A DNA stretch of 32,290 bases from a bacterium (lineage in GTDB: Bacteria > Patescibacteriota > Microgenomatia > UBA8517): contig JAKAJP010000030.1 of assembly GCA_021824915.1 (NCBI GenBank), positions 1 to 32,290 of the forward strand, in the 5' to 3' direction. Below, piece by piece: positions 5,800 to 23,503 of the stretch (positions are counted from its first letter, which is position 1; every line of letters starts with the position of its first letter). The notes beneath the pieces were generated by a model. That model saw only the letters and a program-made list of their open reading frames with translations, did not search any database and had not been told where the DNA came from. Made by a program: the position numbers and the translations under genes.

Positions 5800-5803
5800 C
5801 CTC

Positions 5804-5827
5804 ATGAGCCTTTCTGTTGGAATAGTC
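5804..5827 (+). pseudogene. ychF: Displaced original 5' end of ychF (MSLSVGIV) at attL
   Basis: ATG AGC CTT TCT GTT GGA ATA GTC encodes MSLSVGIV, matching LSVGIV of the ychF at 23436. The frame then diverges and stops at 5861-5863. Confidence 0.85.
5815..5826 (+). repeat. attL core (shared GGAAT at 5819-5823)
   Basis: 10/12 identity with 23456-23467. ychF-like coding stops immediately to its right. Confidence 0.75.
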
Positions 5828-5952
5828 AGAGCGGGAATCAACTTTTTCCATTCGAGCTTGTGATACCGTTACCCCCACCAAGAATAGCTAGACTAATAGT
5901 TCAACGGGACAAGTGGGGAAGAATTGTACATTCAGAAGCTCCATTGTTTTGA
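5821..5952 (+). other. Detached 3' end of the recombinase gene (start-less frame NSQSGNQLFPFELVIPLPPPRIARLIVQRDKWGRIVHSEAPLF*)
   Basis: Open frame of 43 codons plus TGA, in frame with the recombinase when GGAAT 23460-23464 is joined to GGAAT 5819-5823. Confidence 0.7.
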
Positions 5953-6098
5953 GTTAATTTAGGGAAAATATTCTTTTTCTATTCCAGACCGCCTCTTGCG
6001 GTGTTAAAATTGCAATATAAAATTATTAAAATATAGACAATGGTTTTATGAGTAAAAATATGAACTGGTTAAATTAATAGCCTTTTTGATCTAAGAAA

Positions 6099-7031
6099 AT
6101 GGAACAAAGGAATTTAGAAGTTGGTGGTAGAGAGTGGGCGTATATAAAAGATAGAGTGCTTGGGAGAGGGAAAATTTACCGTAGTTTAGATGGCACTCAA
6201 TATATGCATACTGGGAGTGTTGCGGAGGTCGGCAATGAAGCGAATTTTATTGAGCAGCTTCATGGTCTTAATTTTCCGGTGCCAAGGATACTTAGTAAGG
6301 GAGAAATCGGAGGAATTAACTACTACATTGAGGAATCAGTTGGGGACATGAGTTTCGGTGAAAAATTTCGCCATGAATACACCTTGCATCAAAAAGTGAC
6401 TGGAGAGACGTTTGAAGGATTTTGCAATATAGCGTGTCAATTCCTGGAAGCGCAATTGAATAATCCAACAGACAGAAGGAGTGAAATAAGGGAAGGGGTA
6501 CATCTATCTAACGTTTTGCAAGAAAATCCAGATCTTAGAGACAAAATTTTCCCATGCATTAGTATGATAGAAACAAATTTGCAACAAATTCCACTCGTAT
6601 TGACCCATGGAGATTTTTCCCCAAGAAATACTTTTACTAAAGGAGTTATTGATTTTGAGCATAGGTTCATTGCTCCCGTCGGTTATGATGTTCTTACGGG
6701 TATAACAATTCAGCGCTTTTGGGATTTTAAGGATAGTGATGGAGAGACTCAGCTTGATTTTGACGTCGAGTCAGGTCAAGTTGCGGATTATTTTAGAAAA
6801 TTAGACAATATCGCTGAGCATTATAAAATAGGGCAATTATCGAGGTTTGCGGATGATTTCGTTGTACTTAAGGCTATTTGGTCTCTTGCTTACGAAAAGC
6901 AATTTGCTAGTCAAACAGGAAACAATTTAAAAAGAAACTTTCGTAAGGCTGTTTTGGTTTATTGTATGGATCAATATATGAATGGCAGACCAGTAGACAC
7001 TAGTAGTTTTAAAAAGTTTGGACAACAATAG
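6099..7031 (+). CDS. Aminoglycoside phosphotransferase / choline kinase-like protein
   Basis: Brenner motif LTHGDFSPRN, metal-binding VIDFE, PVPRIL, and APVGYD after DFE. Confidence 0.82.
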   Translation: MEQRNLEVGGREWAYIKDRVLGRGKIYRSLDGTQYMHTGSVAEVGNEANFIEQLHGLNFPVPRILSKGEIGGINYYIEESVGDMSFGEKFRHEYTLHQKVTGETFEGFCNIACQFLEAQLNNPTDRRSEIREGVHLSNVLQENPDLRDKIFPCISMIETNLQQIPLVLTHGDFSPRNTFTKGVIDFEHRFIAPVGYDVLTGITIQRFWDFKDSDGETQLDFDVESGQVADYFRKLDNIAEHYKIGQLSRFADDFVVLKAIWSLAYEKQFASQTGNNLKRNFRKAVLVYCMDQYMNGRPVDTSSFKKFGQQ

Positions 7032-7057
7032 AGTAGCGTTGATATAGAATTGAAGTT

Positions 7058-8680
7058 ATGACTAAATTACCAAAGACGATTGAGAATTTATTTTATAATC
7101 CGGAGACGGATTCTGTAGACTCATTACTAAAAGATATTAAGGAGACTCATTTGCATATTTTAGAAAACACGGACTTGTCGAAAGGAACTCTTTCCTCAAA
7201 ACCCGAAGATTATGTGTATGTAATAAAGGATTTTAAAATTCCAAATAACGGAATAGGCCAAGGTTCGTTTGACTCAATTATACCCGCGCTTTTTCGTGGT
7301 GTATCCAGGTGGCACTCTCCTCGAACAATGTATAATGTCGCTCCGCCGCCAATATTACCAACAGTTGTTGGTAAAGTTTTCACTTCACTGTATAACCCAA
7401 ATTTAGCCTTAGACACCGCAGCAGGTAAAAGTCTTTTAACCGAACAGGAAGTAATAAAAGCGATTGCAGATTATATCGGTTGGGATCGAGAAAATGCTGG
7501 TGGAATTTTTACCTGGGGTGGAAAGGCAACAATAATGTATGGTATTAAATTAGGACTAAAAAATTGTTCACCAAATTCTTCTACGCAGGGTGCAAAAGAA
7601 GACGTTGTTGTTCTCTCGACGGTAGCTGGTCATCCATCTCATATACAGGATGCTAATTGGCTGGGTATCGGGACGGACAATGTGATTAGGTTGGAAGTTG
7701 ATAGGGATGGTAAAACGGATGTGAATCAAATGGAACAAGTAATTAAAAAAGTGACCAGAGAGGGTAAAAAAATTGCAGCCATTATTGTTTCAGGAGGAAC
7801 AACCAATAGTATGGTGGTGGATCCAATCGAAAAGGTTGTCGAGTTGAGAAATAGACTTGTAAATGAACTTTCCCTGAAGTATATACCTCATATTCATGTT
7901 GACGCCGTGGTTGCCTTCCCATGGATATTTTTTAAAGACTATAATTTTGGATTAAACAATCTTGATATTGAGGCAGAGGCACTGGAAAGAATATTGAAAA
8001 TAATAAAGGATCTGAAATGTATATATCTGGCTGATTCATTTGGCATAGACTTTCATAAAATGGGTTTTTGTCCTTATATATCAAGTGCCTTTCTCGTTAA
8101 GGACAAAACTCTATTAAGTGGAAAGGAAGACCTTCAAAATTGGCCATTTTTATATTCGATGGAGAATTCTAGAGCTGGTGACGGTCCAAACTCCGCTTTT
8201 ATTGCTTTAAGCGCTTTGGGTGTAAAGGGTTTTCAGGTTTTAATTGCACATTTGACTGAGATGGCGGTGCATTTACAGAATGAGATAGAAAAAACAGGAA
8301 ATTTTGAGATAATAAATAAAACAGGACTCGGAACTTCGGTTATGTTTATTCCACGTATTCCTAAAGGTTTAACTTTCCCAAATTTAGAAATAGAATCGAA
8401 GGTCAGAAATTTTTATACAGCAAGTTTTATCGAAGAAATGTCAAAATTAGGGAATCCTTATTATATTGATAAAATACCCGGCAACTCCACTGGATCCAGC
8501 CCTTTTCCGCTAACATCATTAAAAGCTTACATAATGTCGCCATTTTCAAGCAAAGAAAATAATCTTTCTTTTGTGGAATTTATTGTTGAATTAAAGCGAA
8601 AAATAGATATGAAATTCGATTTTCATAATACAAATATTAAGTCTTCGGATGTTGAATTTTTCCATCCCCTAAAAGGATAA
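7058..8680 (+). CDS. Group II PLP-dependent decarboxylase
   Basis: GIFTWGG, SGGTT, HIHVDA and ADSFGIDFHK(MGFCPY) with the PLP lysine. Confidence 0.88.
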   Translation: MTKLPKTIENLFYNPETDSVDSLLKDIKETHLHILENTDLSKGTLSSKPEDYVYVIKDFKIPNNGIGQGSFDSIIPALFRGVSRWHSPRTMYNVAPPPILPTVVGKVFTSLYNPNLALDTAAGKSLLTEQEVIKAIADYIGWDRENAGGIFTWGGKATIMYGIKLGLKNCSPNSSTQGAKEDVVVLSTVAGHPSHIQDANWLGIGTDNVIRLEVDRDGKTDVNQMEQVIKKVTREGKKIAAIIVSGGTTNSMVVDPIEKVVELRNRLVNELSLKYIPHIHVDAVVAFPWIFFKDYNFGLNNLDIEAEALERILKIIKDLKCIYLADSFGIDFHKMGFCPYISSAFLVKDKTLLSGKEDLQNWPFLYSMENSRAGDGPNSAFIALSALGVKGFQVLIAHLTEMAVHLQNEIEKTGNFEIINKTGLGTSVMFIPRIPKGLTFPNLEIESKVRNFYTASFIEEMSKLGNPYYIDKIPGNSTGSSPFPLTSLKAYIMSPFSSKENNLSFVEFIVELKRKIDMKFDFHNTNIKSSDVEFFHPLKG

Positions 8681-8727
8681 GGTTTGTTTTGCAAGCCTAT
8701 TGTGATAAAATCTCAGCCATAGAACCC

Positions 8728-9963
8728 ATGATAAAACAAAAAACAAATAGCCAGCCTACACAAGTCTTAAGCAGTTTAGAAGAAGCGAGGGTTAATGTAC
8801 CTTTAGAGAACCCCAATTTGCCAATGCCGCTCAAGTTTGAAGTATCAAGGCCTGAAATTATAAAAAAGTCACTAGCGATTAAAGATCTTACTTTACCAAC
8901 TGAAAGTGGGCAGGAAAGAAGCGTTGTTGGAAAGGTTTTTGATCAGGTTGTAGAAAAATTAAAAGAGCATAATTTTTCTGATATTCATATAGTGAGAGGA
9001 AATCCCATTGTTGAAGTAAGAGATAATTTTGATAAACTCCTCTTTTCGCCAGGAAATCCAGGAAGGTCATCAACTTACACTAGGTACACCGATGAGAATC
9101 ATGTATTAAGAACCCACACGTCAGCACTAATACCATCAACTTTTGAGAAATTGGATAAAAAAGATTTAGACCGCTCGACTTTTGTACTCCCAGGCTTAGT
9201 TTATAGAAGAGATGTGATTGATCCTAAACACTTGGACGTGTTCCACCAAATTGATGTATGGACACTTCAGAAAAACAAAAAATACGGAAAGACAAATAGA
9301 AAAGATTTGTTAGAGCTTGTTAAAGCCGTGTTCGAAGCAGCCTGTCCGGGTGCTGAAATGAAAATTAATGAGGTAAAGCACCCCTATACTTTAGATGGTA
9401 TAGAGGTTTATGCGAAAATTGATAACAAAGAGATAGAAGTCCTCGAAGCTGGGTTGGCGCACCCCACAGTGTTAAGTAATTCTGGCATTAATCCTGAAGA
9501 ATACTCGGGTTTGGCTTTGGGTATGGGTGTTGAACGCCTAATCATGGCACGAAAAGACCTACCGGATATCAGGTTAATTCGATCGACAGACCCCCGTGTA
9601 ATTAAACAAATGACGAATATGGAAAAGTATAGGAGTGTCTCTAATCAGCAAGCCATGTCGAGAGATATGTCCTATTGTGTTGAGAAAGACGAAACAGAGG
9701 AAGATATCTGCGAAGCTATTAGGGTTGCGTTTGGGGAGAATAGCGATTTGTTGGAAGAGGTTAAGATTTTAGAGAGAACTCCATACGAAAAATTGACTCC
9801 AATTGCTAGAAAAAGACTCGGTGCATCAAAAGATCAAGTTAACGTTTTGGTAAGAATTGTTTTAAGACATCCCGACAGAAGCTTGACCAAAAGGGAGGCT
9901 GCGGATTTGTACTCCTCTGTTTATCCAAAATTACACCAAGGGTCAACTTTGGGATATGAATAA
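8728..9963 (+). CDS. Single-chain PheRS-like class II ligase with C-terminal FDX-ACB-like domain (PheS-related 'SrmL'-like / mitochondrial PheRS-like architecture)
   Basis: DNFDKL, VLRTHTSA, motif 2 GLVYRRD...HLDVFHQ, motif 3 GLALGMGVERL, PDIRL, then SRDMS...LRHPDRSLT. First ATG is 8728; the ORF track opens at 8689. Confidence 0.85.
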   Translation: MIKQKTNSQPTQVLSSLEEARVNVPLENPNLPMPLKFEVSRPEIIKKSLAIKDLTLPTESGQERSVVGKVFDQVVEKLKEHNFSDIHIVRGNPIVEVRDNFDKLLFSPGNPGRSSTYTRYTDENHVLRTHTSALIPSTFEKLDKKDLDRSTFVLPGLVYRRDVIDPKHLDVFHQIDVWTLQKNKKYGKTNRKDLLELVKAVFEAACPGAEMKINEVKHPYTLDGIEVYAKIDNKEIEVLEAGLAHPTVLSNSGINPEEYSGLALGMGVERLIMARKDLPDIRLIRSTDPRVIKQMTNMEKYRSVSNQQAMSRDMSYCVEKDETEEDICEAIRVAFGENSDLLEEVKILERTPYEKLTPIARKRLGASKDQVNVLVRIVLRHPDRSLTKREAADLYSSVYPKLHQGSTLGYE

Positions 9964-10615
9964 TAATCGGCGTAAGCGTCTAATCACCTTAAGAGAAGCG
10001 TATGAAAAGGAACCTTACAGTGTTAAGCTTAGTGGCCTCAACCTTAGGATAGAAAAAGGTGTTTTTCCTCCTGATGTATCATTTGCTACTCTAAAACTTG
10101 GGAAAATTCTGGGTAACTATCGTCCCGAATCAGCAATAGACATAGGAAGCGGGTCTGGATATCTTGCATTTGTGCTGAAACGAAATGGTGTTCAAAGAGT
10201 ATTTGCAAGTGACATAAATCCGGCCGCAATTAATTGCATAAAAGAAAATGTACGGTTAAATCCCGGCTGTAATCTTAACGGAATTTATTTGAGTGACCTT
10301 TTTAGTAATCTTAAAGAGAACTTAAAGTTTGATCTTATTATCTTCAATCATTTTTACCGTCCCGAAGGAACGGGTATTTTTGGTCCAGTAAACGATGCGG
10401 GAAAAGAGATAATTGAACGGTTTTTGACACAATCAAAACAAAGATTAACTCAAAACGGTGTCATTATTATGAACTTTGTTGAGATGTCTGATCCTGAGAA
10501 TAGCCCGGCAGCAATTGCGAAGCAGATGGGTTATAAGGTGAAAGTATTATTCCAAGAGAGTAACTATCAAAATATGGGTAATTTCTTTGTTTACGAATTT
10601 AAACTGCCAAGTTAA
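9956..10615 (+). CDS. Class I SAM-dependent methyltransferase (HemK/PrmC-like fold)
   Basis: GVFPP, IDIGSGSG, SDINPAA, SDLF, KFDLIIFN. Overlaps the ligase stop by 8 nt. Confidence 0.85.
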   Translation: MNNNRRKRLITLREAYEKEPYSVKLSGLNLRIEKGVFPPDVSFATLKLGKILGNYRPESAIDIGSGSGYLAFVLKRNGVQRVFASDINPAAINCIKENVRLNPGCNLNGIYLSDLFSNLKENLKFDLIIFNHFYRPEGTGIFGPVNDAGKEIIERFLTQSKQRLTQNGVIIMNFVEMSDPENSPAAIAKQMGYKVKVLFQESNYQNMGNFFVYEFKLPS

Positions 10616-10616
10616 T

Positions 10617-12068
10617 TTATCGGCTAATATACTCATCTAGCTTGATAATTGAAGGCAATTTAATCTTGTCTTCTTTGTGAGTTTTATTATAGAAATCCTC
10701 TGCAATCTTTTCGTACATCATTGAGTATATTCTGATGGTCAGTTTCTGGTCATCAATGGTCGAGAGTCTGTCTAATTCTTCCTTGATAACTCTTTCACCA
10801 GCACAAGCTTTAATAAAACTTTTAAACAGATCTTTCGATGTCAAAGTTCCGGTCTCATAGGCGTCAGTAAAGTACCATCTATTAGATTTTTCACCTAATA
10901 AGGGGTGTAACATTTGCCTTAAATCGATGTTGTGCCCTAAAGCCACTTCATCATTTTTTATCAATTGCCACTGTTGTAATGCACCTTGATGTATATCAAA
11001 GTACACAGACGACATTCTTCCTCCGTACTTATCGTGTGCGTATTCTGTAACTTCGGGATTATATTTTGTCAAACGAGGCGCAAATGTAGAATAATTGACA
11101 ATAAAAGTAATTAATCCAATCTGGTTGTTGTTTTTGTCTCTTAATTTTAGGTAAAAATGAAAATCAAGTTCGGTGTTTAATGCTTGTTTGGGGATATTAG
11201 CCACATCATCATTATTCTTATTTTCAACAAGCTTTCTCAAGGATTTATAGCTACCAGCCTTAATATATTCTTCTACTCTCAAGATATAGGGCATAGAAAT
11301 TTCGATAGTGTCAATATTTCCCCTTGCCATTTTAAGATACCAAGCTACCACATCGATATAGTGATAGCTTGTGTGAGAGAGTGTGCCAACCCCGTCAATG
11401 TGTCCGTGCGCGCCACCCTTAAGATATTCGCTTGGATATTTATGAATTCCCCCGTTGATTATAACGTTCATATATCTAATTCCTTCACCAGTCTTTAAAT
11501 ATATTTTATTTAACCCATCTGCTACTTTGATAAAAGGGATTAGCGCTCTTCTTCGAAGGGGAGAGCAAAACATGTAGTTTTTATTTTCCTTTTTGATTTT
11601 GTCATATAATAAATTTAATTTTTCATATTTTTTCTGAATTGACCGAGCTTGATTTATATCTAGAGAGCTATTCATATTGGTAACTAAAGGTTTATCACAA
11701 AGTAAATTTATTTTATTTTTAAGTGCCCATTCGCAGTAAAAATAGTGATGAACAGGGTCTGTCGCAACAATTACCGCATTAATTAGCTTTTTTATATTAA
11801 GTTGATCTAATTCGTATTGTAGTTGGTCGGGTGATTTTCCAGACGTATCAATCCATTGTGGGTTATCTAGTTCTAAAATCTTTTTGAGGTTGTCACGTAT
11901 TTCCTGTTTTTCTGTATCCCTTGGATTAACCGGATCACAGATCGCCACGACTTTTACATTCATGCCCTCTGATTTCAGACTAAGAATCGAGGAATAATGA
12001 TTCTTTTCAGTCCACAAGCCACTACCACCGGCAACAAGAATGTTTATTGTTTTAGAATTCATTCCCAT
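10617..12068 (-). CDS. Gfo/Idh/MocA-family NAD(P)-dependent oxidoreductase
   Basis: N-terminal Rossmann ILVAGGSG, VVAICD, AVIVATDPVHHY, LLCDKPL, and GTLSHTSYHYID (H-x-x-D catalytic region). Confidence 0.8.
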   Translation of the reverse strand: MGMNSKTINILVAGGSGLWTEKNHYSSILSLKSEGMNVKVVAICDPVNPRDTEKQEIRDNLKKILELDNPQWIDTSGKSPDQLQYELDQLNIKKLINAVIVATDPVHHYFYCEWALKNKINLLCDKPLVTNMNSSLDINQARSIQKKYEKLNLLYDKIKKENKNYMFCSPLRRRALIPFIKVADGLNKIYLKTGEGIRYMNVIINGGIHKYPSEYLKGGAHGHIDGVGTLSHTSYHYIDVVAWYLKMARGNIDTIEISMPYILRVEEYIKAGSYKSLRKLVENKNNDDVANIPKQALNTELDFHFYLKLRDKNNNQIGLITFIVNYSTFAPRLTKYNPEVTEYAHDKYGGRMSSVYFDIHQGALQQWQLIKNDEVALGHNIDLRQMLHPLLGEKSNRWYFTDAYETGTLTSKDLFKSFIKACAGERVIKEELDRLSTIDDQKLTIRIYSMMYEKIAEDFYNKTHKEDKIKLPSIIKLDEYISR

Positions 12069-12134
12069 ACGTCACATTTGAGTATTAGTATATCAAGATT
12101 TAATAGCAAACTATAATTTGGAAGGAACCCTTAT

Positions 12135-13565
12135 TTAGAAAAGTTCGTTTTGGTCAGCTTTGACTTCAGCCCTTTTGAAAGGGTTTATTTTATCCGTTGG
12201 TAGTTTTAGCCCCTTGCCTTCAAACCACTCCTTTACTGAAAGTAGTTGTATTTTGGGGAAAGATGTTGATTCAGAGTATCTATATTCTCCGGCTAAAGCA
12301 GCTTCTCTTTTCATCTCGCTTGTAGGTTCGTGTAATGTTATTAAAACTCCCATAGGCGCACTATCCCTTTCAATATCTCCCTTGAGCGTTGAAACTTCAT
12401 TCCGGTGGTTTGTGTTTCCGCCCTTAACTTGAACAATAATCTTTTTGAGCTTGGGATTTCTTAAATCTTCTCTATCATAAAAAAGGATAATTCCATCAAT
12501 ACCCCTGTCTGCGCCTTTCTTTGTCTCACCACTTGGGGGGCTGGCCCCAACAAGAGTTATTGCCCAATCTTGAAATGAAAACTTATCTTTTTCAGCCAAA
12601 CTTACTGCTGACTCAAAATCCATTGGTATTCCATCGAGATGTATTTGTATTCCGGGGTAATGAGCATTCATTCTTTGGTTTATAACATTTACTGCTTGCA
12701 TACTAATGTCTATCCCAGCCCAGTTTCTGTTTAATCTTTCGGCGACTGCAACCGTAGTTCCGCACCCACAAAACGGGTCTAAAATCCAATCACCCTCTTT
12801 AGATGAAATTTTGATTATTCTTTCGAGGAGTTTTTCGGGTTTTTGTGTAGGATAATCCAATCTTTCTTTATCCATAGGGTTTAAAGCTGGTATTTCCCAG
12901 ACATCCATAGGAATTTTGTAAATATCATTTGCACCAATCCTTGCCCCTTTGGGATTTTGAGCTCTTTCCATAGCTTTTTCTGTTCTTTTATCAGGGTCGG
13001 CCATTGGGTCAAAATGATAATCATCAGTTTTTGTGTAGAAGAGAATAATGTCGTGTTTTTTTGAATAATGCTGTTTGCTAGCTCCTCCAGTTTGATAATG
13101 CCATACAATTTCATTCCTGAAATTTTCCTTTCCAAAAATCACATCCATAATGATTTTTAGATAATGGCTTGCCGTCGGATCGCAATGCAAATATATTGAC
13201 CCGGTTGTTTTCAAAACGCGATGAAGAGGCATAAGTCTTGCAGTCATATTGACCAAATAGGCCATCATTTGGTTTTGACCGATAAATTCTGAAAGGCTGT
13301 TTATAAGTATGGCTATTTGTGGTTTTGGATTGTTTTTTAATTCGTTAAATATCCTTACTGTATCTTCCGTCCATTCCCAAGTATCCTCGAAGGCGTGAAT
13401 TTGGGCTGAGGAATCAATCTGACCTTCCTTGAAAAGTACGTTGTAGTTACGGTTTGAATTGAATGGGGGATCAAGGTATATTAAATCAAAGAAATTTTCA
13501 GGGATTTTCTCTTTCAATACCTCTAAGTTATCTCCAAAAAAGAGAGTTCTGTTTTGAATATCCAT
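12135..13565 (-). CDS. Amino (N6-A/N4-C) DNA methyltransferase, beta class, fused to a C-terminal Mrr-like endonuclease domain
   Basis: GDNL, DLIYLDPPF, YPTQKPE, ILDPFCGCGTT. The C-terminus has GADRGIDG...IVQVKGG (Mrr-type D...QxK). The ORF track opens at 13571. Confidence 0.9.
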   Translation of the reverse strand: MDIQNRTLFFGDNLEVLKEKIPENFFDLIYLDPPFNSNRNYNVLFKEGQIDSSAQIHAFEDTWEWTEDTVRIFNELKNNPKPQIAILINSLSEFIGQNQMMAYLVNMTARLMPLHRVLKTTGSIYLHCDPTASHYLKIIMDVIFGKENFRNEIVWHYQTGGASKQHYSKKHDIILFYTKTDDYHFDPMADPDKRTEKAMERAQNPKGARIGANDIYKIPMDVWEIPALNPMDKERLDYPTQKPEKLLERIIKISSKEGDWILDPFCGCGTTVAVAERLNRNWAGIDISMQAVNVINQRMNAHYPGIQIHLDGIPMDFESAVSLAEKDKFSFQDWAITLVGASPPSGETKKGADRGIDGIILFYDREDLRNPKLKKIIVQVKGGNTNHRNEVSTLKGDIERDSAPMGVLITLHEPTSEMKREAALAGEYRYSESTSFPKIQLLSVKEWFEGKGLKLPTDKINPFKRAEVKADQNELF

Positions 13566-13660
13566 ATTCAATTGCTACAAACAGTCCCAATATAGCAGAA
13601 CTATAAAAATGCTACAAGGAGAAGCTGGTCTATCAGTCCCATTTAGCCTAGCCTTGGGGT

Positions 13661-13882
13661 ATGAAAGTTGTTTCAGAAGCTCATAAAAGGTTTGGCCAAA
13701 GATTAAAAATTTTAAGAAAAGAGCAGGGAATGACGCAGGAAGATTTAGCGTTTAAAGTGGGAGTTGATAGAAGTTATATGGGTTTTATCGAGAGGGGAGA
13801 GAAGAATGTTACTCTTAAAAGACTAGTTGATATAGCTAAAGCTTTTAGGGTGTCTCTTTCGGAGCTCTTCAAATCAATTTAA
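13661..13882 (+). CDS. XRE-family HTH regulator, similar to RM controller (C) proteins
   Basis: FGQRLKILR...MTQEDLA...DRSYMGFIERGEKNVTL. Divergent from the methylase gene. Confidence 0.88.
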   Translation: MKVVSEAHKRFGQRLKILRKEQGMTQEDLAFKVGVDRSYMGFIERGEKNVTLKRLVDIAKAFRVSLSELFKSI

Positions 13883-13980
13883 TAAACTTGCAATTTTAGT
13901 GGTAATATACAGGTATAAAACACCCTTGATAAATGGGCTTTTTTTGTAGCTAGTCTTTTACTAGAAAAATTACAATTAAT

Positions 13981-15813: not shown

Positions 15814-15960
15814 CAACAGTATTTCAAGGCTAATTAATTCACCGATACCTCATGTTTATTTTTGAATAGCAGATATTTAGCTTCAAAAATTTCAATTATT
15901 ACTTTCGACTGGTGAGCATAGACAGGTCAAAAATAAAGCTGGTTACGTTTTTGAAAATTT

Positions 15961-16233
15961 ATGACTATGACTCAAAATCTAGATATCAATGACTATTACT
16001 CGACTTCAGATCTCGCGTTAGCAACCGCGATTTCTCTTTATTATCCACTTGAGGTGGTTGACCGTAGCAATCCCCATAAGGCTCAATTTCTTTTCAAAAG
16101 AGATGACAACCTGGATAAATTTATAGAATCGTATTGGAGAGGAGATCTTAAAGTAAGTCCTTCTTCTTATTTTAATCAGCTAAAAATCATAAAAGCCCGG
16201 CTTTACGAAATGGAAAGGAGCCGCAATGGCTAA
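15961..16233 (+). CDS. Small element protein, DUF5659-like
   Basis: YSTSDLALATAI...FLFKR...YWRGDLKVSP-x-x-YFNQLK-x-x-KARLY pattern, recognised from memory. Confidence 0.7.
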   Translation: MTMTQNLDINDYYSTSDLALATAISLYYPLEVVDRSNPHKAQFLFKRDDNLDKFIESYWRGDLKVSPSSYFNQLKIIKARLYEMERSRNG

Positions 16234-16414
16234 AATTAAAGTTACTTTTGAACAGGTGGAATTGAGTAAGGAGGAGTTAAAAAATCGCATTGATTCCATT
16301 TTTGATATTTTGTTTGAGGAAATTGTGAAGTCGTCAGTACGGCCAAATAAGAATATTTCTATAGATCGCGTGGATGGCGGGAGGGAGGTGAATGAACAAA
16401 TATGCCTAAGTTAA
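16226..16414 (+). CDS. Small hypothetical protein
   Basis: 62-aa ORF with an AGGAG SD. Overlaps both neighbours. Confidence 0.55.
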   Translation: MAKIKVTFEQVELSKEELKNRIDSIFDILFEEIVKSSVRPNKNISIDRVDGGREVNEQICLS

Positions 16415-16815
16415 TTTTCAAAAAAAGAGTAGTTCCGGATGCGGGGAAAATAATGACCCATTTGGTCTCAGTTGGCGAAGTGGAGAACCAGTTTTACAAC
16501 CCAAAAGAGCAAAGTGAGGATAAAAAGACGCAGTTGGAATGGATTTTTGAGTACACGGACAAGCCGGGAATGCAAATACGGCTTTGGTCTACCAAAAGTC
16601 TATCAACTTACAAGGGTAAGAAATCCAAAGCTCTAACTATTACTGAATCCTTGCTGGATAAAGAACTGACTGATGAAGAAAAAGAAAGTTTTGGAGATAC
16701 CGATCAGTTGGTTGGACGAAAGTGTTATCTAACTGTTAAGCACGAGAAGAAAGATGACGGTCAGATTTACGCAAAAGTAGTTGATTTTGAAAGCGAATCA
16801 GGAATTCCCTTTTAA
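16402..16815 (+). CDS. Putative phage-type single-stranded DNA-binding protein (OB-fold-like, acidic IPF tail)
   Basis: Beta-rich, LVGRKCYLTVKH...YAKVVDF, ends ESESGIPF. Strong GGAGGTGA SD; sits directly upstream of the primase. Confidence 0.6.
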   Translation: MPKLIFKKRVVPDAGKIMTHLVSVGEVENQFYNPKEQSEDKKTQLEWIFEYTDKPGMQIRLWSTKSLSTYKGKKSKALTITESLLDKELTDEEKESFGDTDQLVGRKCYLTVKHEKKDDGQIYAKVVDFESESGIPF

Positions 16816-16822
16816 CTTTCAT

Positions 16823-16851
16823 TCCGGGCGTAACTTCAAATTGCGCCTGGA
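16823..16851 (+). promoter_or_regulatory. Intergenic RNA hairpin upstream of the primase gene
   Basis: TCCGGGCGTAA-(7 nt loop)-TTGCGCCTGGA: 11-bp stem with two G-U pairs and no U-tract. Confidence 0.5.
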
Positions 16852-16865
16852 GACGAGAGCTGAAT

Positions 16866-19202
16866 ATGGCTAATCAAGATACTACTACAAATAAGATTTT
16901 GGAGCAAGCTTTGTTCCTATCTGAAAAGATGGGGTGGAGCATAATTCCTGTGGGAGCCGATAAGAAACCATTGATTGAGTGGAAAATCTATCAAAACCAA
17001 AAAGCAACTCCCGAGCAGGTTAAAGAATGGTTTTCAGAGCCAGGTGTTAATTTGGGGGTTGTTACCGGCAAGATATCAAATTTGGTAGTCGTAGACATTG
17101 ATATTAGAAGTGGTGGTACAGATGAGGATTTTAAGGGAGTTCAGACGGTTAAATCTAAGACTGGGGGTGGTGGCTGGCATTACTATTTTAAATTCGAGGA
17201 AGGTTTACAGAATCAGGCGGGGATAAGACCGGGAATTGATATTCGAGCCGAAGGCGGCTATGTGGTAGCACCTCCATCAACCCATAAGTCGGGTAACTTA
17301 TACGAGTGGTTAAGAGCGCCCGTGGACGCGGAAGTTGTAGAACTACCAAATTTCGTTAAAGAGTGGATAGGTAATGTCAAAAGTAAAGATGGTTCTAAAG
17401 AAAGTAAATGGAATAATAAATTACTCGGTGGTGTTTCTGAAGGTAATAGAAACGATGCTGCCGCCTCCGTAATTGGTAAGTGGCTTAAACGTTACCCGGA
17501 GGAGGAATGGGATGAAGTTTGGTCAATGGCGCTTCTTTGGAATAAAGATAATAAACCCCCACTACCTGAAGAGGAGTTGCGGACCGTTTTTGAATCAATA
17601 GTCAAAACTGAAAAAGCAAATGAAGGAGAGGATGATGACAGTCCGGGGAGGCGGACTGTAGCGGATAAAATAGTTGATTTGGTTTTGGAGCTAAAAGCTG
17701 AACTATATTTGGATCAGACAGGAGAACCTCATATTACTTTTCCAGAAAAGCCCGTTGTTGGCTTTCCCATAAAAAGCTCCGTATTTAGAAGGTGGATTAG
17801 TGGTAAGTTTTGGGAACAATACGAAAAGGGATTTTCTGGAGAAAGCTTCCAACAGGCGGTAAGTAGTATTGAAGGAAAATCATTCCATGAGGGAGTAACA
17901 AAAAGTCTTTATAACCGTGTTGCCAGAGTTGATGGTGTAATTTACTACGACTTAGGAGATGATGCGCGGGTTATAAAGATAACAAAAGAAGGTTGGGAAG
18001 TAACTACTAAATGTCCGGAGAAGTTTAGAAGATTTAGTCATCAACTGCCTCAGATTGAGCCTAAAAAGGGCGGAGACGTGTTGAAAGTTTTGGAATATCT
18101 TAACCTCAAAACAGAAACAGACAAACTGCTTTTCATAACATATCTTCTGACAGTCTTTATTCCTGATATACCAAGAGTGGTTTTAATTAACATTGGGGAT
18201 CAGGGCGCGGCCAAAAGTACTGCCTTAAGAATTATCAGAAGTTTGGTGGACCCAAGCATTTCAGAACTCTTAAGTCCTCCGTCGGATATTAACGAACTAG
18301 CTCAGGCATCAAATCATCATTATTGTCTGTATCTGGATAATCTTTCATACCTCCGTGACGAGCTATCTGACGCTTTGTGTAGGCTTGCTACAGGCATAGG
18401 GTTTACGAAACGGAAACTGTTTACCAATGATGAGGACGTGTTGTTTACCCAGAAGGCTGCGGTTGGGATTACAGGAATCAACCTGGTAGCCCAACGAGCG
18501 GATTTACTAGATAGATGCTTGATATTGAGTTTTGAACGAATTCCCGAGGATATGCGAATAGATGAGGAAGACTTTTGGAAGAATTTCAACAACGATAAAC
18601 CACTAATGTTAGGTTCTATTTTTGACAAGTTATCACTGCTTTTGGGGATGGCACAGGAATTTAAGTTGGCAAGAAAGCCCCGAATGGCGGATTATGCCAA
18701 ATATGCTGCGATTGGTGCCTTAACGCTAGGTAAGAGTCCTGAAGAGTTTCTAACTGCCTTTGGTGAGAATATAGAAAGGCAGAACCAGGCGGCAATTGAT
18801 TCATCCCCAACAGCTCAATCTATTTTGAAATTCATGAGTGACAAAGATAGTTGGAGCGGTCCGAGTACGGAACTACATAAGCTTCTTAAAAGCATAGTTG
18901 AGGCAGCTAACTTGCAAATAGGGGGTTCTGAAGGCTTTCCTAAATCTTCCAATTGGCTTTGGAAGCGAGTAATGCAAATACGTCCCAACTTATTGTCTTT
19001 GGGTATAAGTGCCTCTAAATCCGAAACAATAGAAGGTTCAGAAATAAATCTCAAAAAAGGTGTCCAGGAAGAGAAAAATACTGCCATTACTGCCAATACT
19101 GCCACTGAAGTGAAAGACATGGCAGCAGTGGCAGTAGAACAGGGGACTTTGGAGGGAGTCTCAACCTTTAGTTCAATTCCCGGATTGGAGGATTACAAAT
19201 GA
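16866..19202 (+). CDS. Bifunctional primase-polymerase with PriCT-like domain and C-terminal P-loop helicase-like domain
   Basis: NLGVVTG, VVDID, KTGGGGWHYYF, DIRAEGGYVVAPPS; EGNRND and WN...PPLPEEEL (PriCT-1); Walker A GDQGAAKST, LYLDN, DLLDRC. Confidence 0.9.
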   Translation: MANQDTTTNKILEQALFLSEKMGWSIIPVGADKKPLIEWKIYQNQKATPEQVKEWFSEPGVNLGVVTGKISNLVVVDIDIRSGGTDEDFKGVQTVKSKTGGGGWHYYFKFEEGLQNQAGIRPGIDIRAEGGYVVAPPSTHKSGNLYEWLRAPVDAEVVELPNFVKEWIGNVKSKDGSKESKWNNKLLGGVSEGNRNDAAASVIGKWLKRYPEEEWDEVWSMALLWNKDNKPPLPEEELRTVFESIVKTEKANEGEDDDSPGRRTVADKIVDLVLELKAELYLDQTGEPHITFPEKPVVGFPIKSSVFRRWISGKFWEQYEKGFSGESFQQAVSSIEGKSFHEGVTKSLYNRVARVDGVIYYDLGDDARVIKITKEGWEVTTKCPEKFRRFSHQLPQIEPKKGGDVLKVLEYLNLKTETDKLLFITYLLTVFIPDIPRVVLINIGDQGAAKSTALRIIRSLVDPSISELLSPPSDINELAQASNHHYCLYLDNLSYLRDELSDALCRLATGIGFTKRKLFTNDEDVLFTQKAAVGITGINLVAQRADLLDRCLILSFERIPEDMRIDEEDFWKNFNNDKPLMLGSIFDKLSLLLGMAQEFKLARKPRMADYAKYAAIGALTLGKSPEEFLTAFGENIERQNQAAIDSSPTAQSILKFMSDKDSWSGPSTELHKLLKSIVEAANLQIGGSEGFPKSSNWLWKRVMQIRPNLLSLGISASKSETIEGSEINLKKGVQEEKNTAITANTATEVKDMAAVAVEQGTLEGVSTFSSIPGLEDYK
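19080..19136. repeat. Iteron-like array: three direct ACTGCCA-nn 9-mers plus two inverted copies (candidate origin)
   Basis: ACTGCCATT ACTGCCAAT ACTGCCACT ... ATGGCAGC AGTGGCAGT. TACTGCCACTG (19097-19107) is the perfect inverse of 19126-19136. Confidence 0.6.
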
Positions 19203-19507
19203 TTACAGAAACAATAAAAGAAACACTTGAGAAATATATTCGGCTTTGCTCTTGGTTCCTGATTAAAGACGGAGATAAAGACGTTGCTTCGAATCAATTT
19301 GAGACAGTTTTAAAGGAAATTGGGAATTTGGAAGACAAGCTGATTGGAGAAGGTGTCTCCGGGAAAACTATTGAGACGATTGTTGAGATGACAAGAAAAA
19401 ACACTTTAGAGAAACCAATAAGTGAGTTAAGCGATTCTCAATTACTCAAGGTTTGTAAATTGATATTTGGTAAGGAAGTTGAATTTGAGGGGGGTGCCAC
19501 CCCATAA
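19199..19507 (+). CDS. Hypothetical protein
   Basis: 102-aa ORF coupled to the primase stop (ATGA overlap). Confidence 0.65.
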   Translation: MITETIKETLEKYIRLCSWFLIKDGDKDVASNQFETVLKEIGNLEDKLIGEGVSGKTIETIVEMTRKNTLEKPISELSDSQLLKVCKLIFGKEVEFEGGATP

Positions 19508-19518
19508 GCGTAACTTAT

Positions 19519-19908
19519 ATGGAAGAAAAACCACAATGCAGTTTTATAAAAGAAAATGGGGAGAGATGTAATGCTATACCTATGAAAGATAGTGGCTATT
19601 GCTTTAGCCACAATCCTGATGTGGAAGTTGAGCGCCATATGGCTTTGGTTAAGGGTGGTTTGGCCAGTAAGAAAGTAGAGTTAAACCTTGAACCCTTGAG
19701 CATAAAAGACCCTAAAGAAGTGGCCACCTTGCTTGAAAGCACAATTAACGGTGTAAGAAGTGGTGAGATTCCACCCAATATTGCAAACACGATTGGTTAC
19801 CTCGCAGGGCACGTTCTGAAGGCCCTGGAATCATCGAACTTAGACCAGAGAGTGGAAATGGTAGAGAGCATTCTTTTGGAACGTAAGCGAAGCATAAAGA
19901 AGCACTAA
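19519..19908 (+). CDS. Hypothetical protein with N-terminal C-x9-C-x10-C-x2-H putative zinc finger
   Basis: QCSFIKENGERCNAIPMKDSGYCFSH followed by KGG and a helical C-terminus. Confidence 0.72.
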   Translation: MEEKPQCSFIKENGERCNAIPMKDSGYCFSHNPDVEVERHMALVKGGLASKKVELNLEPLSIKDPKEVATLLESTINGVRSGEIPPNIANTIGYLAGHVLKALESSNLDQRVEMVESILLERKRSIKKH

Positions 19909-19909
19909 A

Positions 19910-21652
19910 ATGACGAAAAACTTAGACTTAACCAGAATATCGGAAAATCTAACCCCTAAAGAGCGGGTCCTCCTCATGGTTCACGACGATGTTGAAGAAC
20001 AAAAGACCGGGAAAGGAGTATTAACTGATGCCGATAAACACGCCTTAACAGAAGGTTGGACGCCTAAAAACAATTATGAAGTAGATGAGTATAACAAGTT
20101 TAATAAAGGCTGGAGAATGATGGGCTTTGCTGAAATTGACGCACAAACAACGTTTTTAAATGCACAATCAACTTATTTTCAGGAGAAACAGATGAGCAAT
20201 TTCCTTTTGTTATATCCACTCTTTAGAGATGCAAAGAATTGGGTGGATAGCCTTGATAATATTAAGCCGGTGAGTATCGACCAGGCACTGGAGATAGTTA
20301 AAAGACAGAGAGAAGTGAAATTAAAAGGTGGTTTGGAATTTGATCGTGCGGTTTATCAACTGGCATTTGAGAATTTAAGTAAGGATTTACAAGAGGATTT
20401 AGAAACCCTTTATCCAGAGATTAAATATGAGACAGATTATTTAGACGAGGAAGAAATAATTGCGGGTCTTTTTGGCGGTAAAGAAAAACTAGCAATTGAG
20501 GATAAGAACAAGCTGGCGGATCTGATAATCAAAAAATCTTACAATCAATACGCCAAAGAATACCAATTTTTTCATTATTTTGCCTCAATTCCTATAAAAG
20601 AAGTTGTTAAAAGGTGGATGAAAAAGAGGGGGATACAGCCGGAGACTTTACCAGCCGATGAAGAGTTTCAAAACGCTTTTACTAAGATTTCGGAGGAGAA
20701 AAACTTAAATTCTGAAGAGGCTATTATAGATTGGACGGCCGAAAATATAGCTGAAGCAATCAGTGATTATGCTAGAAAACATCAAACAACAGTGGAAGTT
20801 GAATTAAAAGAGGTATGTTTGGAATGGATAGACGAAGGCTTGTTAGATAATTACCAACCTTTATTTAAGTCTACAGATACCAAGACTTGCAACGGCACAA
20901 CCAAGTTACCCTGCAATCTAATTTTTAAGGAATGGATTGAGGCCAAAACAAAAGCCAAAAATATTCTGGACAATCTTATTTCAGAGGGGAAATTAAAGCG
21001 GGAAGGCGACACTTTAACCGGGGGAAGTCTTTACAACTTCAAAGGAGATTACCAATTTATTAAGGAACATAACAAATATGTAGATTTATATGATGCCAAC
21101 TTGGGTATTGTATACGCAGATGATGATCCGGAGCACAAAAAAGCACATTTGGATAGGGAGTTTCTGATAACCGAGATTGGAGAAGACGGTAAACCCAGCG
21201 GTATCAATTTTTCACAAATAGCTATGGCGAGAATAAAAGGATTCTTTGAGATGCTGGGATTTGTAAAGGAAAGTGAAATAAATGGGGAGAGGATTATAGA
21301 GTTTAAGGATGAAAATTTTAATGAATTAATGAGAAATACAATCACATCTCTTAAGGAGTTATATTCTGCGCTTTTAACTTTCCGGGAACTTTTTAGAAAG
21401 CTGTCCAAGGTGTATGAAGTGGACCTAACTTTTAAGATTGATGAATGGGTGAAACAAACTGAAAAGTTTATAGATAGCCACAATGAGGTTCTTAAACTAG
21501 CTACCAAAAAGGATTTTATGGAAATGCGAAGCAAAAATACGGTAAGGTTTAAAGATGATTGGTTTATTGATAAATCGAAAATAAGTTCAGACGAAGAAAG
21601 AACAATGAGATACTTTAAAGAGTTTGAAGGGATATTAAAAGAGGACTTTTAG
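19910..21652 (+). CDS. Large hypothetical alpha-helical protein
   Basis: 580-aa ORF starting 1 nt after the upstream stop. No family recognised. Confidence 0.75.
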   Translation: MTKNLDLTRISENLTPKERVLLMVHDDVEEQKTGKGVLTDADKHALTEGWTPKNNYEVDEYNKFNKGWRMMGFAEIDAQTTFLNAQSTYFQEKQMSNFLLLYPLFRDAKNWVDSLDNIKPVSIDQALEIVKRQREVKLKGGLEFDRAVYQLAFENLSKDLQEDLETLYPEIKYETDYLDEEEIIAGLFGGKEKLAIEDKNKLADLIIKKSYNQYAKEYQFFHYFASIPIKEVVKRWMKKRGIQPETLPADEEFQNAFTKISEEKNLNSEEAIIDWTAENIAEAISDYARKHQTTVEVELKEVCLEWIDEGLLDNYQPLFKSTDTKTCNGTTKLPCNLIFKEWIEAKTKAKNILDNLISEGKLKREGDTLTGGSLYNFKGDYQFIKEHNKYVDLYDANLGIVYADDDPEHKKAHLDREFLITEIGEDGKPSGINFSQIAMARIKGFFEMLGFVKESEINGERIIEFKDENFNELMRNTITSLKELYSALLTFRELFRKLSKVYEVDLTFKIDEWVKQTEKFIDSHNEVLKLATKKDFMEMRSKNTVRFKDDWFIDKSKISSDEERTMRYFKEFEGILKEDF

Positions 21653-21656
21653 AATA

Positions 21657-21685
21657 TTGCAAAGTATTACAAAGTAATCTAATAT
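21657..21685 (+). promoter_or_regulatory. Sigma70 promoter of the xis-recombinase unit, overlapped by a tandem 10-bp repeat
   Basis: TTGCAA-17 nt-TAATAT, 6 nt before ATG 21692. ATTGCAAAGT ATTACAAAGT at 21656-21675. Confidence 0.65.
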
Positions 21686-21691
21686 GAATCT

Positions 21692-21883
21692 ATGGAAGAA
21701 TTTTACACAACAAGACAAATTGGAAAGATGCTTCATGTTAAAGCCATTACCATAAGGCGTTGGATATCTAAAGGCGATTTACCCGCACTTTTCTTTGAGA
21801 AGGAATATAGAGTAATAAAATCGGATTTTGATAAATTTATTCAAAGTAAAAAAGTTCAAATAAAGAAAGGAAAGGGTAAATAA
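21692..21883 (+). CDS. Excisionase-like HTH DNA-binding protein
   Basis: FYTTRQIGKMLHV-x-x-x-TIRRWI-x-x-GDLPA...YRV-x-x-SDFDKFI, a MerR-like Xis fold. Immediately upstream of the recombinase. Confidence 0.85.
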   Translation: MEEFYTTRQIGKMLHVKAITIRRWISKGDLPALFFEKEYRVIKSDFDKFIQSKKVQIKKGKGK

Positions 21884-21886
21884 AAA

Positions 21887-23503
21887 ATGTTGGTGGCTAC
21901 TTACAAAAGGGTTTCAACAATGCGTCAGGAAAATGAGCAGACCATTGAGAATCAGACAATGGCTATTAAAGAGTTTGCTGATAAGAATGGCCACACAATT
22001 ATCAAGGAATATCAAGATGATGGTTGGAGCGGGACAATTCTTGCCCGCCCAGGACTCGATGGGCTTCGGATTGATGCTAAAAAGAAAGTTTGGGAGGCTG
22101 TAATCATCTATGATCCGGATAGAGTTGCCCGTAAGTATTCCTATCAGGCTTTAGTAATTGATGAGCTTGAAGAAGCAGGAATAAAAGTTCTTTTTGTTAC
22201 AACCCCTCCGGCCCTAACAGAAGAGGATCGTTTACTTTATGGAGTGAAAGGTTTGTTTGCCGAATATGAAAGAGCCAGAATTGCTGACCGCTTCAGGCTT
22301 GGCAAATTAAGAAACGCACGCGAAGGAAAAGTGGTAACTAGCGCTGCCCCATATGGCTATAACTACATTCCCAAACAAGGGAGTGTTCACGGACATTTTG
22401 AAATAAATAAACAGGAAACAATTGTGGTCAGGATGATCTTTAAGTGGGTTGGTGAGGAAGGTATCACAATGATGACTGTAATTAAAAGGCTTCATGAAAT
22501 GGGAATTCCCCCGAGAAAAGGTAAGAAAGAAACATGGAGCACTAGTACCCTTACATCGCTTCTGAGAAATGAGACTTACATTGGGTTGGCACACTATAAC
22601 AGTTCCTATGCTGTTGTTCCTCAAAACCCGCTAAAACACGATAAATACAAAAGGGTGAAAAAGTCGAGTAGAAAAATGAGACCGCGTGAAGAGTGGATAT
22701 TTATTCCAGTACAGTCAGTTATTGATAAAGAATTATTTGAAAAGACTCAAAAACAATTAAAACTTAATTATGAGCTTTGCCAGAGGAACAAAAAGAACGA
22801 CTATCTTCTGGCACAAATGATGTATTGCGTTTGTGGTAGAAGACGAACCGGTGAGGGACCACAAAAGGGTAAGCATCTATACTATAGATGTACAGACAGA
22901 ATTTATCATTTTCCGCTTCCCCGTAAGTGTAAAGAGAGAGGAGTTAATGCCAGGATTGCGGATGATTTGGTTTGGAGCAGGGTTAAAAAGTTTATGACCT
23001 CACCCGATCTAATTAAGGAACAGGCTAAAAGGTGGGTAGGAAAAAAGAAGGGTGAACTTACAAACTCCCATGAATCAATAGATGACCTTAAGTTTGAGTT
23101 GGAGAAAATTAAAAAAGAGGAACAAAGATATATAAAGGCTTATGGAGCGGAAATGCTTACGATTGAACAGCTTAACGAGACGATGGGGGATTTGAGGTTG
23201 AGAAGGTCTATTTTAGAAAAGAGAATCAAGGATATGGACGATAGTTCGAATTCTATGGAAATTAAACTTCCAAATGATGAACAAATAGAAGAGTTTTGCA
23301 AGCAGGCATTAGATAAATTGGAAGGCTTGAGTTTTGAGGGGAAACGGGGGATACTAACGAAGGTATTAACCAAAGTCATAGGAACCCAAAAAGAATTAAG
23401 GGTTTTAGGTTATTTACCAATAGAAAACAACCAAAATGTCGAGTTCAAAACTGAGTGTCGGAATTGTAGGGCTACCGAATGTGGGGAAGTCTACCCTGTT
23501 TAA
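21887..23503 (+). CDS. Large serine recombinase (integrase), integrated-state form
   Basis: YKRVST (catalytic Ser), DDGWSG, RPGLD, DRVAR, PYGY, zinc ribbon CVCG...YYRC...C, coiled coil. Overlaps ychF by 68 nt. Confidence 0.95.
   Translation: MLVATYKRVSTMRQENEQTIENQTMAIKEFADKNGHTIIKEYQDDGWSGTILARPGLDGLRIDAKKKVWEAVIIYDPDRVARKYSYQALVIDELEEAGIKVLFVTTPPALTEEDRLLYGVKGLFAEYERARIADRFRLGKLRNAREGKVVTSAAPYGYNYIPKQGSVHGHFEINKQETIVVRMIFKWVGEEGITMMTVIKRLHEMGIPPRKGKKETWSTSTLTSLLRNETYIGLAHYNSSYAVVPQNPLKHDKYKRVKKSSRKMRPREEWIFIPVQSVIDKELFEKTQKQLKLNYELCQRNKKNDYLLAQMMYCVCGRRRTGEGPQKGKHLYYRCTDRIYHFPLPRKCKERGVNARIADDLVWSRVKKFMTSPDLIKEQAKRWVGKKKGELTNSHESIDDLKFELEKIKKEEQRYIKAYGAEMLTIEQLNETMGDLRLRRSILEKRIKDMDDSSNSMEIKLPNDEQIEEFCKQALDKLEGLSFEGKRGILTKVLTKVIGTQKELRVLGYLPIENNQNVEFKTECRNCRATECGEVYPV

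Follow-up and report, generated by a model that had tools for sequence, protein, structure and literature searches.

The DNA analysed here, 32,290 nucleotides from a bacterium of the Patescibacteriota (Microgenomatia; contig JAKAJP010000030.1 of assembly GCA_021824915.1) and hereafter called the window, carries a 17.6-kb integrated element that occupies the first codons of ychF, the gene of the YchF GTPase, and supplies this gene with a replacement start. The element encodes a large serine recombinase (LSR), and the findings as a whole are probably best explained by an attachment site, attP, lying inside the 3′ coding region of the LSR gene itself, an arrangement shared by a whole clade of elements that target ychF. 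The initial annotation had placed attP inside this gene and had integration exchange the C-terminus of the enzyme; this has held, the detached tail being conserved in relatives and a natural attP contig being at hand for one of them. From the sequence comparisons that follow, two recombinase isoforms specific to the integration state are well supported.

The LSR contains the domains Resolvase (PF00239; E 1e-27, residues 4-148), Recombinase (PF07508), which is DNA-binding domain 1 (DBD1), and Zn_ribbon_recom (PF13408), which is DBD2; residues Y6, R8 and S10 are invariant among 58 aligned sequences. Its open reading frame (ORF) crosses attR, codon 526 (AAT, N526) ending at 23464. After this position CRATECGEVYPV is read from an alternate frame of ychF, so that the integrated protein of 538 amino acids ends just as had been claimed. 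The pentamer GGAAT is present at 23460-23464 and again at 5819-5823, within the host B arm (5804-5823). To the right of the latter copy, 5824-5952 is open without an internal stop as far as the TGA at 5950-5952, and its frame continues that of the LSR after N526 to give 568 amino acids when the two ends are joined. Every coordinate of this joint, first proposed in the initial annotation, was reproduced. The reading frame is unaffected by where in the pentamer the strands are exchanged, but the crossover most likely lies at the GG inside GGAAT and not at the pentamer as a whole.

In the circular form, as the sequence shows, the LSR gene encodes about 568 residues, tail included. These comprise the catalytic domain and DBD1, a zinc-ribbon DBD2 that includes the coiled coil, a short linker encoded by attP, and a conserved C-terminal module of about 35 residues with the consensus IPFxFxIKLPPPxxxRxIxxRDxxGRIxxS. 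When the element recombines with ychF, for which the GG of ATCGG is the probable site, this module is stranded 17.6 kb upstream, at attL. At attR the ORF then enters the alternate ychF frame and stops after 12 codons, while the P arm gives ychF its new start. The 29 bases from 23436 to 23464 have three roles, as P arm of attP, as LSR codons 517-526 (of which V518 and R525 are nearly invariant) and as the first 10 codons of the rebuilt ychF, whose substitute start reads MSSSKLSVGI (ATG at 23436). The native start left at attL, MSLSVGI at 5804-5823, agrees with the YchF N-termini of two relatives, L003 and L008 (MSLSVGIVGLPNVGKST).

Recombinase tails in related elements

LSRs were sought in a sample of 401 genomes of the phylum and found at E≤1e-60 in 11. 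Nine of these read into ychF and two (G322, G114) do not; five of the nine are only 36-41% identical to the window LSR. A small profile of the tail, run over the same genomes, matched 13 at E≤0.01. Seven of these, namely the window's own genome, G054, G205, G107, G323, G214 and G104, have an attL-type site, in which a native-like ychF start (MSFQIG, MSLSIG or MLSIG) is followed in another frame by a tail of the pattern G.NTTRH....KLIPFxFTIKLPPPxYxRxIVxRxxxGxIVxSVPx and a stop. The G.NTTRH with which most tails begin is the P′ arm read as protein. A wider profile found tails in all five distant genomes, each adjoining a ychF-like start (Table 1). The peptide and its frame are thus conserved to the right of attL in relatives and, as shown below, at the C-termini of uninterrupted homologues.

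Five of the 13 matches were rejected as attL sites: those in G145, G264 and G186 are short matches inside longer open frames, and those in G354 and G278 are short open frames that adjoin neither a ychF-like start nor tail-like sequence. The thirteenth, G091, was left out of the site inspection. In the one-contig genome G380 three attL-like sites (792902-793018, 3339-3449 and 1333-1449 of C1, all on the minus strand; L058, L061 and L064), each with a ychF-like start and a tail, lie upstream of a single LSR-ychF junction, which looks like tandem accretion or the remnants of successive elements.

Both ends were located in ten elements (the window, G214, G054, G323, the metagenome contig L046, G380, G422, G396, G154 and G159). 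In all ten the central GG falls at the same codon position whether it is read in the LSR frame of attR or in the tail frame of attL, and joining therefore always continues the ORF. The ten are kin, so a chance of one in three per element overstates their independence.

Beyond the att arm, the tail is under purifying selection. The three close pairs gave synonymous differences (pS) of 0.45-0.48 against nonsynonymous differences (pN) of 0.08-0.13, with dN/dS of 0.12-0.21; among distant pairs pS is saturated at 0.7-1.1, as against a pN of 0.2-0.5. No in-frame ATG, GTG or TTG lies between the upstream stop and the motif at 7 of 17 attL sites, the window's included, and an ATG precedes the motif at only two of the 17. 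The tail thus changes in the manner of coding sequence, although in the integrated state it lacks a separate start. It would be most improbable, then, that the attL stretch is no part of the recombinase, being instead an independent small gene or a conserved stretch of DNA with another task, for instance as accessory binding sites or as the promoter of the first cargo gene. About 130 of the 150 matches listed in a search of cluster representatives (below) are indeed annotated as short stand-alone ORFs. Yet there is no conserved start codon, the substitutions are of the protein-coding kind, uninterrupted fusions with LSRs exist, and sigma-70-like promoters around the two element ends did not exceed what shuffled sequences gave. 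Terminators there did not exceed it either.

The same data bear on a neutral origin, in which the overlap of attP with the end of a compact gene is incidental and the protein can do without either tail. Variable C-terminal extensions are common in LSRs, according to passages of PMC5025042, and the stretch encoded by att is predicted to be disordered. Against this stand the dN/dS values, the phase kept in ten elements of ten, and a tail whose length and motif persist even where LSR identity is only 36-41%, so that we consider a by-product very improbable.

Among 7998 scored candidates, 1404 proteins were LSR relatives at E≤0.001, and the C-termini of the best 120 (52-62% identical to the window LSR, the window's own protein apart) were inspected. 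The one-base-shifted residue pattern of the ychF P-loop was matched in full by 68 and in part, stopping at a truncated end, by 35, while 13 missed the regular expression by about one position and were alike by eye; an ending derived from ychF is therefore found in about 116 of the 120. Its length after the crossover is 12 residues in 56 of the 68 full matches. The other four (P0038, P0057, P0064 and P0067, each of 567 amino acids) have an uninterrupted long tail with the motif [FI]PF[EK][FL]xI, as in the peptide at attL of the window. In a FastTree phylogeny of the 120 with C-termini removed, P0038 falls inside a clade of short forms (support 91), and the short form P0070 groups as sister with the other three long forms, P0057, P0064 and P0067 (support 100). 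Long forms thus lie at two places among short ones, and long versus short behaves as a state and not as a lineage. Taken together, these sequences suggest that elements with attP in the LSR gene and ychF as target make up a whole clade that is widespread in Patescibacteria.

That 35 homologues end a few residues past the crossover implies that their contigs end at the att site. Ends of this kind are what an assembly graph produces when integrated, empty and circular forms co-occur, or when ychF is conserved between strains. At the C-termini of P0061, P0071 and P0159 a single ORF passes through two junction motifs in turn, such as ...YAFRSVYCDGADAPRH... followed by ...YAFAPIHRNCRFA, a pattern suggestive of a recombinase frame that runs on across tandem att remnants. 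The last 63 residues of P0038, searched by word index, matched nothing but P0038. The collection viral_contigs, scanned with P0038, P0057 and the tail alignment, gave no relative, so these elements are absent from that virus collection.

Joined forms and the crossover point

The tail profile was compared with 1.84 billion cluster representatives, giving 177 proteins at E≤0.001 and 23 at E≤1e-10; the match ends 0-3 residues before the end of the protein in 95 of 152 matches. In 18 of the 150 matches listed (P0142, P0172 and P0185, for example) the C-terminal segment of an LSR lies directly upstream of the tail, and P0185 has Recombinase and Zn-ribbon domains besides. These 18 are fragments of uninterrupted genes, and the remaining listed matches are short ORFs of the attL kind. 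No sequence in the PDB matched the profile better than E 0.7, and no Pfam family matched it. The ESM Atlas contains no model of P0038, and its feature matches were unnamed short proteins and a weak lead to DUF4368 (0.90, 80 shared features).

The joined form is also present as DNA. In the 2.2-kb metagenome contig L045, 304 LSR codons run in frame into a tail. When L045 was compared by blastn with two integrated relatives, L046 and the G054 element, its bases 1-766 corresponded to the end of their LSR gene at attR (8775-9540 in L046) and bases 759-2214 to the sequence that follows attL on the right (L046 2510-3975, 91%; G054, 86%). An 8-bp stretch of L045, ATCGGTAT, belongs to both matches. This is the attP joint of a related element of about 7 kb, in a circle or a tandem copy. 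Junction-spanning DNA of the kind foreseen in the initial annotation has therefore come to light for a related element, but the Logan contigs of four runs contained none for the element of the window. In one of these runs, X4, two contigs end or begin at window positions 5797-5808, beside attL; the other three runs bridge this place.

The natural attP of L045 has a perfect inverted repeat of 10 bp, the copies 30 bp apart. Its best centre of dyad symmetry is the GG of ATCGGTAT, with 16 of 24 symmetric positions, a value reached by 3 of 2000 shuffles; the dyad symmetry of attB did not exceed that of shuffles. In the window the two ends share a core of 5 bp. In G154 this core is just ATCGG and the ends differ directly after the GG (CAA versus TAT), so the crossover must lie at or to the left of the GG. 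The central dinucleotide would accordingly be the GG at 23460-23461 and 5819-5820.

Predicted structure and a possible switch of direction

The natural long form P0038 was modelled with AlphaFold2 (alignment of 72 rows) at a mean predicted local distance difference test (pLDDT) of 85. Residues 517-532, encoded by att, fall below pLDDT 50 and are predicted to be disordered. After them residues 535-542 (FPFKFQIK) form a strand that follows the DBD2 hairpin 494-499 / 503-510, the block having a pLDDT of 77-81, and two long helices (373-420 and 426-454) lie inside DBD2. Fold comparison (VIA-align) gave Z scores of 14-17, the highest being 16.8 for the SPbeta integrase (9dxh_A; root-mean-square deviation 14.8, 457 residues aligned), followed by 15.3 for Bxb1 (9iu2_A) and 14.1 for the LI integrase (4kis_A). 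The ranges aligned with solved LSR chains end at model residues 509-531 and none reaches the tail strand; the region beyond 513 is barely tested by this comparison, so that the tail may still have a known counterpart.

When residues 296-526 of the window LSR and the 42-residue tail were submitted to complex prediction as separate chains, the score was 0.71 in each of three runs, and the best of three controls gave 0.00. This mark is reached by 58 of 80 solved complexes and by 2 of 110 mismatched pairs, counts that are rough, custom alignments having been used. Contacts agree between the runs to at least 74%, with a partner pLDDT of at least 61. In the model, tail residues 7-19 (LFPFELVIPLPPP) pair antiparallel with LSR residues 500-512 (TQKELRVLGYLPI) and also touch 351-369, 376-383 and 459-462, that is, a DBD2 helix and two segments close to the coiled coil.

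This placement can be compared with what has been reported for other LSRs. Passages of PMC11722253 put F532 of the SPbeta integrase at the interface with its recombination directionality factor (RDF), and extra C-terminal beta-strands of the SCCmec LSRs could, according to PMC12286644, block the RDF site. With the tail predicted at the same junction, we infer that this junction would be occupied in the enzyme of the circle and free in that of the integrated state. Since the full-length isoform can be encoded only by the excised or joined form, it is the form available for integration; the 538-residue isoform, the only one that the integrated element can make, is the form available for excision. 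The tail, by adding a beta-strand to the last strand of DBD2, would cover the junction of DBD2 and coiled coil where directionality factors bind other LSRs, and the full-length enzyme would be locked into integration. Loss of the tail would free the junction, for instance for the HTH_17 protein encoded next to the LSR, and so permit excision. We put this proposal at somewhat less than an even chance. A fuller version of it, in which the tail is a plug acting in cis, integration removes it, the enzyme can then excise with the help of the HTH_17 protein or even of no separate factor, and the state of the DNA programs the next direction, is more doubtful again.

A different role for the tail would make this a "suicidal" serine integrase: the tail would be needed for folding, DNA binding or synapsis, the 538-residue form would be inactive, and the element would be locked in until a full-length copy was supplied in trans, as has been proposed for SSV-type elements. 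Purifying selection on the tail fits this, as does its predicted completion of the last DBD2 sheet; the decayed or tandem remnants in G104 and G380 fit poor excision, and the same logic is described for archaeal suicidal integrases in portions of PMC8371274. Yet the catalytic domain, DBD1, DBD2 and coiled coil are all intact in the 538-residue form, and solved LSRs align to model residues 1 to about 513, all within that ORF. The intact, selected tails at attL across the phylum moreover imply a regular return to the joined form, which requires excision from the integrated state. We therefore judge an inactive short form unlikely.

Less likely than this is a switch of stability, in which the tail or its replacement from ychF would alter the half-life of the recombinase, much like the degradation tags that integration removes elsewhere. 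The exchange of a C-terminus by integration is the same as in the BPs-type repressors, as sections of PMC8092301 describe them. The tails, however, end in ...APLF, ...SVPV or ...SKVL, none of 27 aligned tail ends being of the ssrA-like form XXXAA, and conservation falls not on a terminal tag but on a strand motif inside the tail, for which the models predict order and docking.

Several points weigh against the proposed reading, that is, an attP inside the LSR gene with a tail that governs direction. The evidence for the isoforms is wholly in silico, both being known from DNA alone, and present data do not tell a role in directionality from one in folding, activity or stability. Purifying selection on the tail and its modelled place at the junction of DBD2 and coiled coil lend a role in directionality, activity or stability support of an indirect kind only. 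Only tail residues 7-19 are confidently placed by the models, and the two halves of one gene tend to pass complex prediction. The distal half of the tail is not uniform, having either the form R.I..RD..GRI..S or the dissimilar G.RGYS/GVDYGF. Tandem copies, and not free circles, could be the source of L045 and of the long-form proteins. For the window element itself, the Logan contigs contain the integrated form only, with no attP joint and no empty attB, a weak negative in that contigs drop rare forms; its reconstructed attP has the same best dyad centre, GG, with 13 of 24 symmetric positions, which 186 of 2000 shuffles reach and which is not significant. Lastly, the G205 assembly has an attL-type tail in which no LSR was found, and in G104 (L071, G104:C1:27000-41000) an intact tail ORF of 45 residues (L032:1450-1584, minus strand) lies 11.7 kb upstream of a ychF with a native-like start (MLSIGIVGLPN), with no LSR between them (tblastn, E≤10). 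The element in G104 is a fossil, and tails can outlast their recombinase.

The element at ychF and its place among known systems

The window comes from a Patescibacteria-type assembly of 0.75 Mb that is 97% complete; the features discussed are collected in Table 1. The core genes of the element are an HTH_3 regulator, DUF5659, a Prim-Pol primase, HTH_17 and the LSR, of which DUF5659 and HTH_17 are common to the window element and that of G054. The Prim-Pol / PriCT_1 protein is likely to be the replication module of the circular form, and the HTH_17 protein is a candidate directionality factor or regulator. By tblastn, 5 of 11 related loci have a homologue of the latter immediately before their LSR; with that of G054, recognised by Pfam, the count is at least 6 of 11. 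The cargo (window 6099-13571) opens directly after the tail with an APH-family kinase. Its other products are a pyridoxal phosphate (PLP) decarboxylase, a protein resembling PheRS-alpha (tRNA-synt_2d + FDX-ACB), methyltransferases, and a fusion of an N6_N4 DNA methylase with an Mrr-like nuclease domain. In G054, too, the 7-kb element (L042) starts with an APH-family kinase, and it has an rRNA adenine dimethylase (RrnaAD).

Table 1. Positions of the features of the window, followed by the tails of five distantly related genomes
Feature	Position	Strand	Remarks
attL	5796..5844	.	host arm, inferred GG 5819-5820, P′ arm about 5821-5844; extent inferred from attP of ~50 bp
native ychF 5′ end left at attL	5804..5823	+	ATG and 6 codons, MSLSVGI
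integrated element	5824..23464	.	17,641 bp; ends fixed by the ychF duplication
detached recombinase 3′ end, 42 codons and stop	5824..5952	+	conserved tail module (LFPFELVIPLPPP...RDKWGRIVHS)
Prim-Pol / PriCT_1 primase-polymerase, 778 aa	16866..19202	+	domain match
HTH_17 (excisionase/MerR-like), 63 aa	21692..21883	+	directly upstream of LSR
LSR ORF, integrated state, 538 aa	21887..23503	+	residues 1-526 element-encoded
attR	23436..23485	.	P arm 23436-23459, inferred GG 23460-23461, host B′ arm
ychF (YchF GTPase, 326 aa)	23436..24416	+	YchF GTPase domains; first codons element-supplied
alternate-frame ychF C-terminus of integrated-state isoform, 12 codons and stop (CRATECGEVYPV)	23465..23503	+	ychF P-loop region
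G154 tail	another contig		E 7.5e-14
G159 tail	12 kb upstream		E 7e-11
G380 tail	18 kb upstream		E 1.7e-9
G422 tail	5.6 kb upstream		E 0.005, a weak score; rests on position and context
G396 tail	9 kb upstream		E 0.17, a weak score; rests on position and context

The host gene upstream of attL (3781-5799) had no match in the ychF loci of 20 relatives, and an empty site of the species or a near relative is therefore lacking for comparison. In G029, a genome of the same order, the complete ychF (54295-55293) is preceded, at a distance of 3 kb, by a second N-terminal fragment of the gene (G029:C16:51194-51490; 85% identical over residues 5-95), which may reflect another kind of insertion, or a duplication, at ychF. 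A defective prophage with a tyrosine integrase lies just upstream of ychF in Streptococcus pneumoniae and is reported, in passages of PMC8637289, to influence how ychF is expressed; unrelated systems have thus targeted the 5′ side of ychF repeatedly.

The choice between integration and excision by large serine integrases is central both to the biology of phages and mobile elements and to the tools of genome engineering. The present family would be a natural case of recombination rewriting its own recombinase, with circle and integrated copy encoding different enzymes, and the difference between them is predicted to sit where directionality factors act in other LSRs. If the isoforms differ in direction, they would form a minimal one-protein toggle and a new handle for engineering. 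In evolutionary terms, a single stretch of about 29 bp serves as att arm, as integrase codons and as the replacement start of an essential-type host GTPase gene. The family is also, so far, an undescribed and widespread group of integrative elements, found in the Patescibacteria, a phylum about whose mobile DNA little is known.

In ordinary LSR prophages and islands, such as those of phiC31, Bxb1, A118 and SPbeta, attP is located next to int and is not known to lie inside the coding sequence. The window element resembles these in the domain architecture and fold of its recombinase, in its att sites, which are probably short, and in its integration into a host gene; it differs in that attP is inside the LSR gene and that the element also rebuilds the start of its target. 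The literature covered, with supplements outside its scope and subscription journals thinly represented, describes neither a serine recombinase with attP in its own gene nor ychF-targeting elements in Patescibacteria. The sre recombinase of phage R4 may be such a case. The 6,207 LSR-att predictions of PMC10083194 may include sites that overlap their own gene.

The closest parallel in logic is with the SSV1-type suicidal tyrosine integrases of archaeal viruses and plasmids, in which, as parts of PMC8371274 and PMC7253208 set out, the att site lies in the integrase ORF, so that the gene is cut in two on integration and a complete enzyme is encoded in the free form alone. Those are archaeal tyrosine recombinases whose two fragments are presumed to be inactive, whereas here the enzyme is a bacterial LSR, only the last ~42-50 residues beyond DBD2 are detached, 12 host-derived residues are substituted for them, and all known functional domains stay in one ORF. 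Since its chemistry is that of serine and not of tyrosine (R...KxxR...Y), the window LSR works like the suicidal class without being a member of it.

In the integration-dependent immunity of mycobacteriophage BPs and of Mycobacterium abscessus prophages, integration likewise exchanges the C-terminus of the gene that bears att, as described in sections of PMC8092301 and PMC4557955. According to the same sections, attP there lies in the repressor gene, the integrase is a tyrosine recombinase, and what is removed is a degradation tag. In the window element att crosses the gene of the serine integrase itself and not that of a repressor, the HTH_3 regulator (13661-13882) being far from both ends, and what is detached is a strand motif, conserved and with a predicted fold. 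An "extreme C-terminal element" bearing on directionality has been described for SprA (Abe et al. 2021, as cited in passages of PMC12286644 and PMC11722253). In SprA and the SCCmec LSRs, so far as those passages go, a segment after DBD2 lies at or near the junction that binds the RDF, where the tail of the present family is predicted to lie too. Their C-terminal element, however, is fixed, whereas in the elements at ychF the tail is removed or restored by recombination itself.

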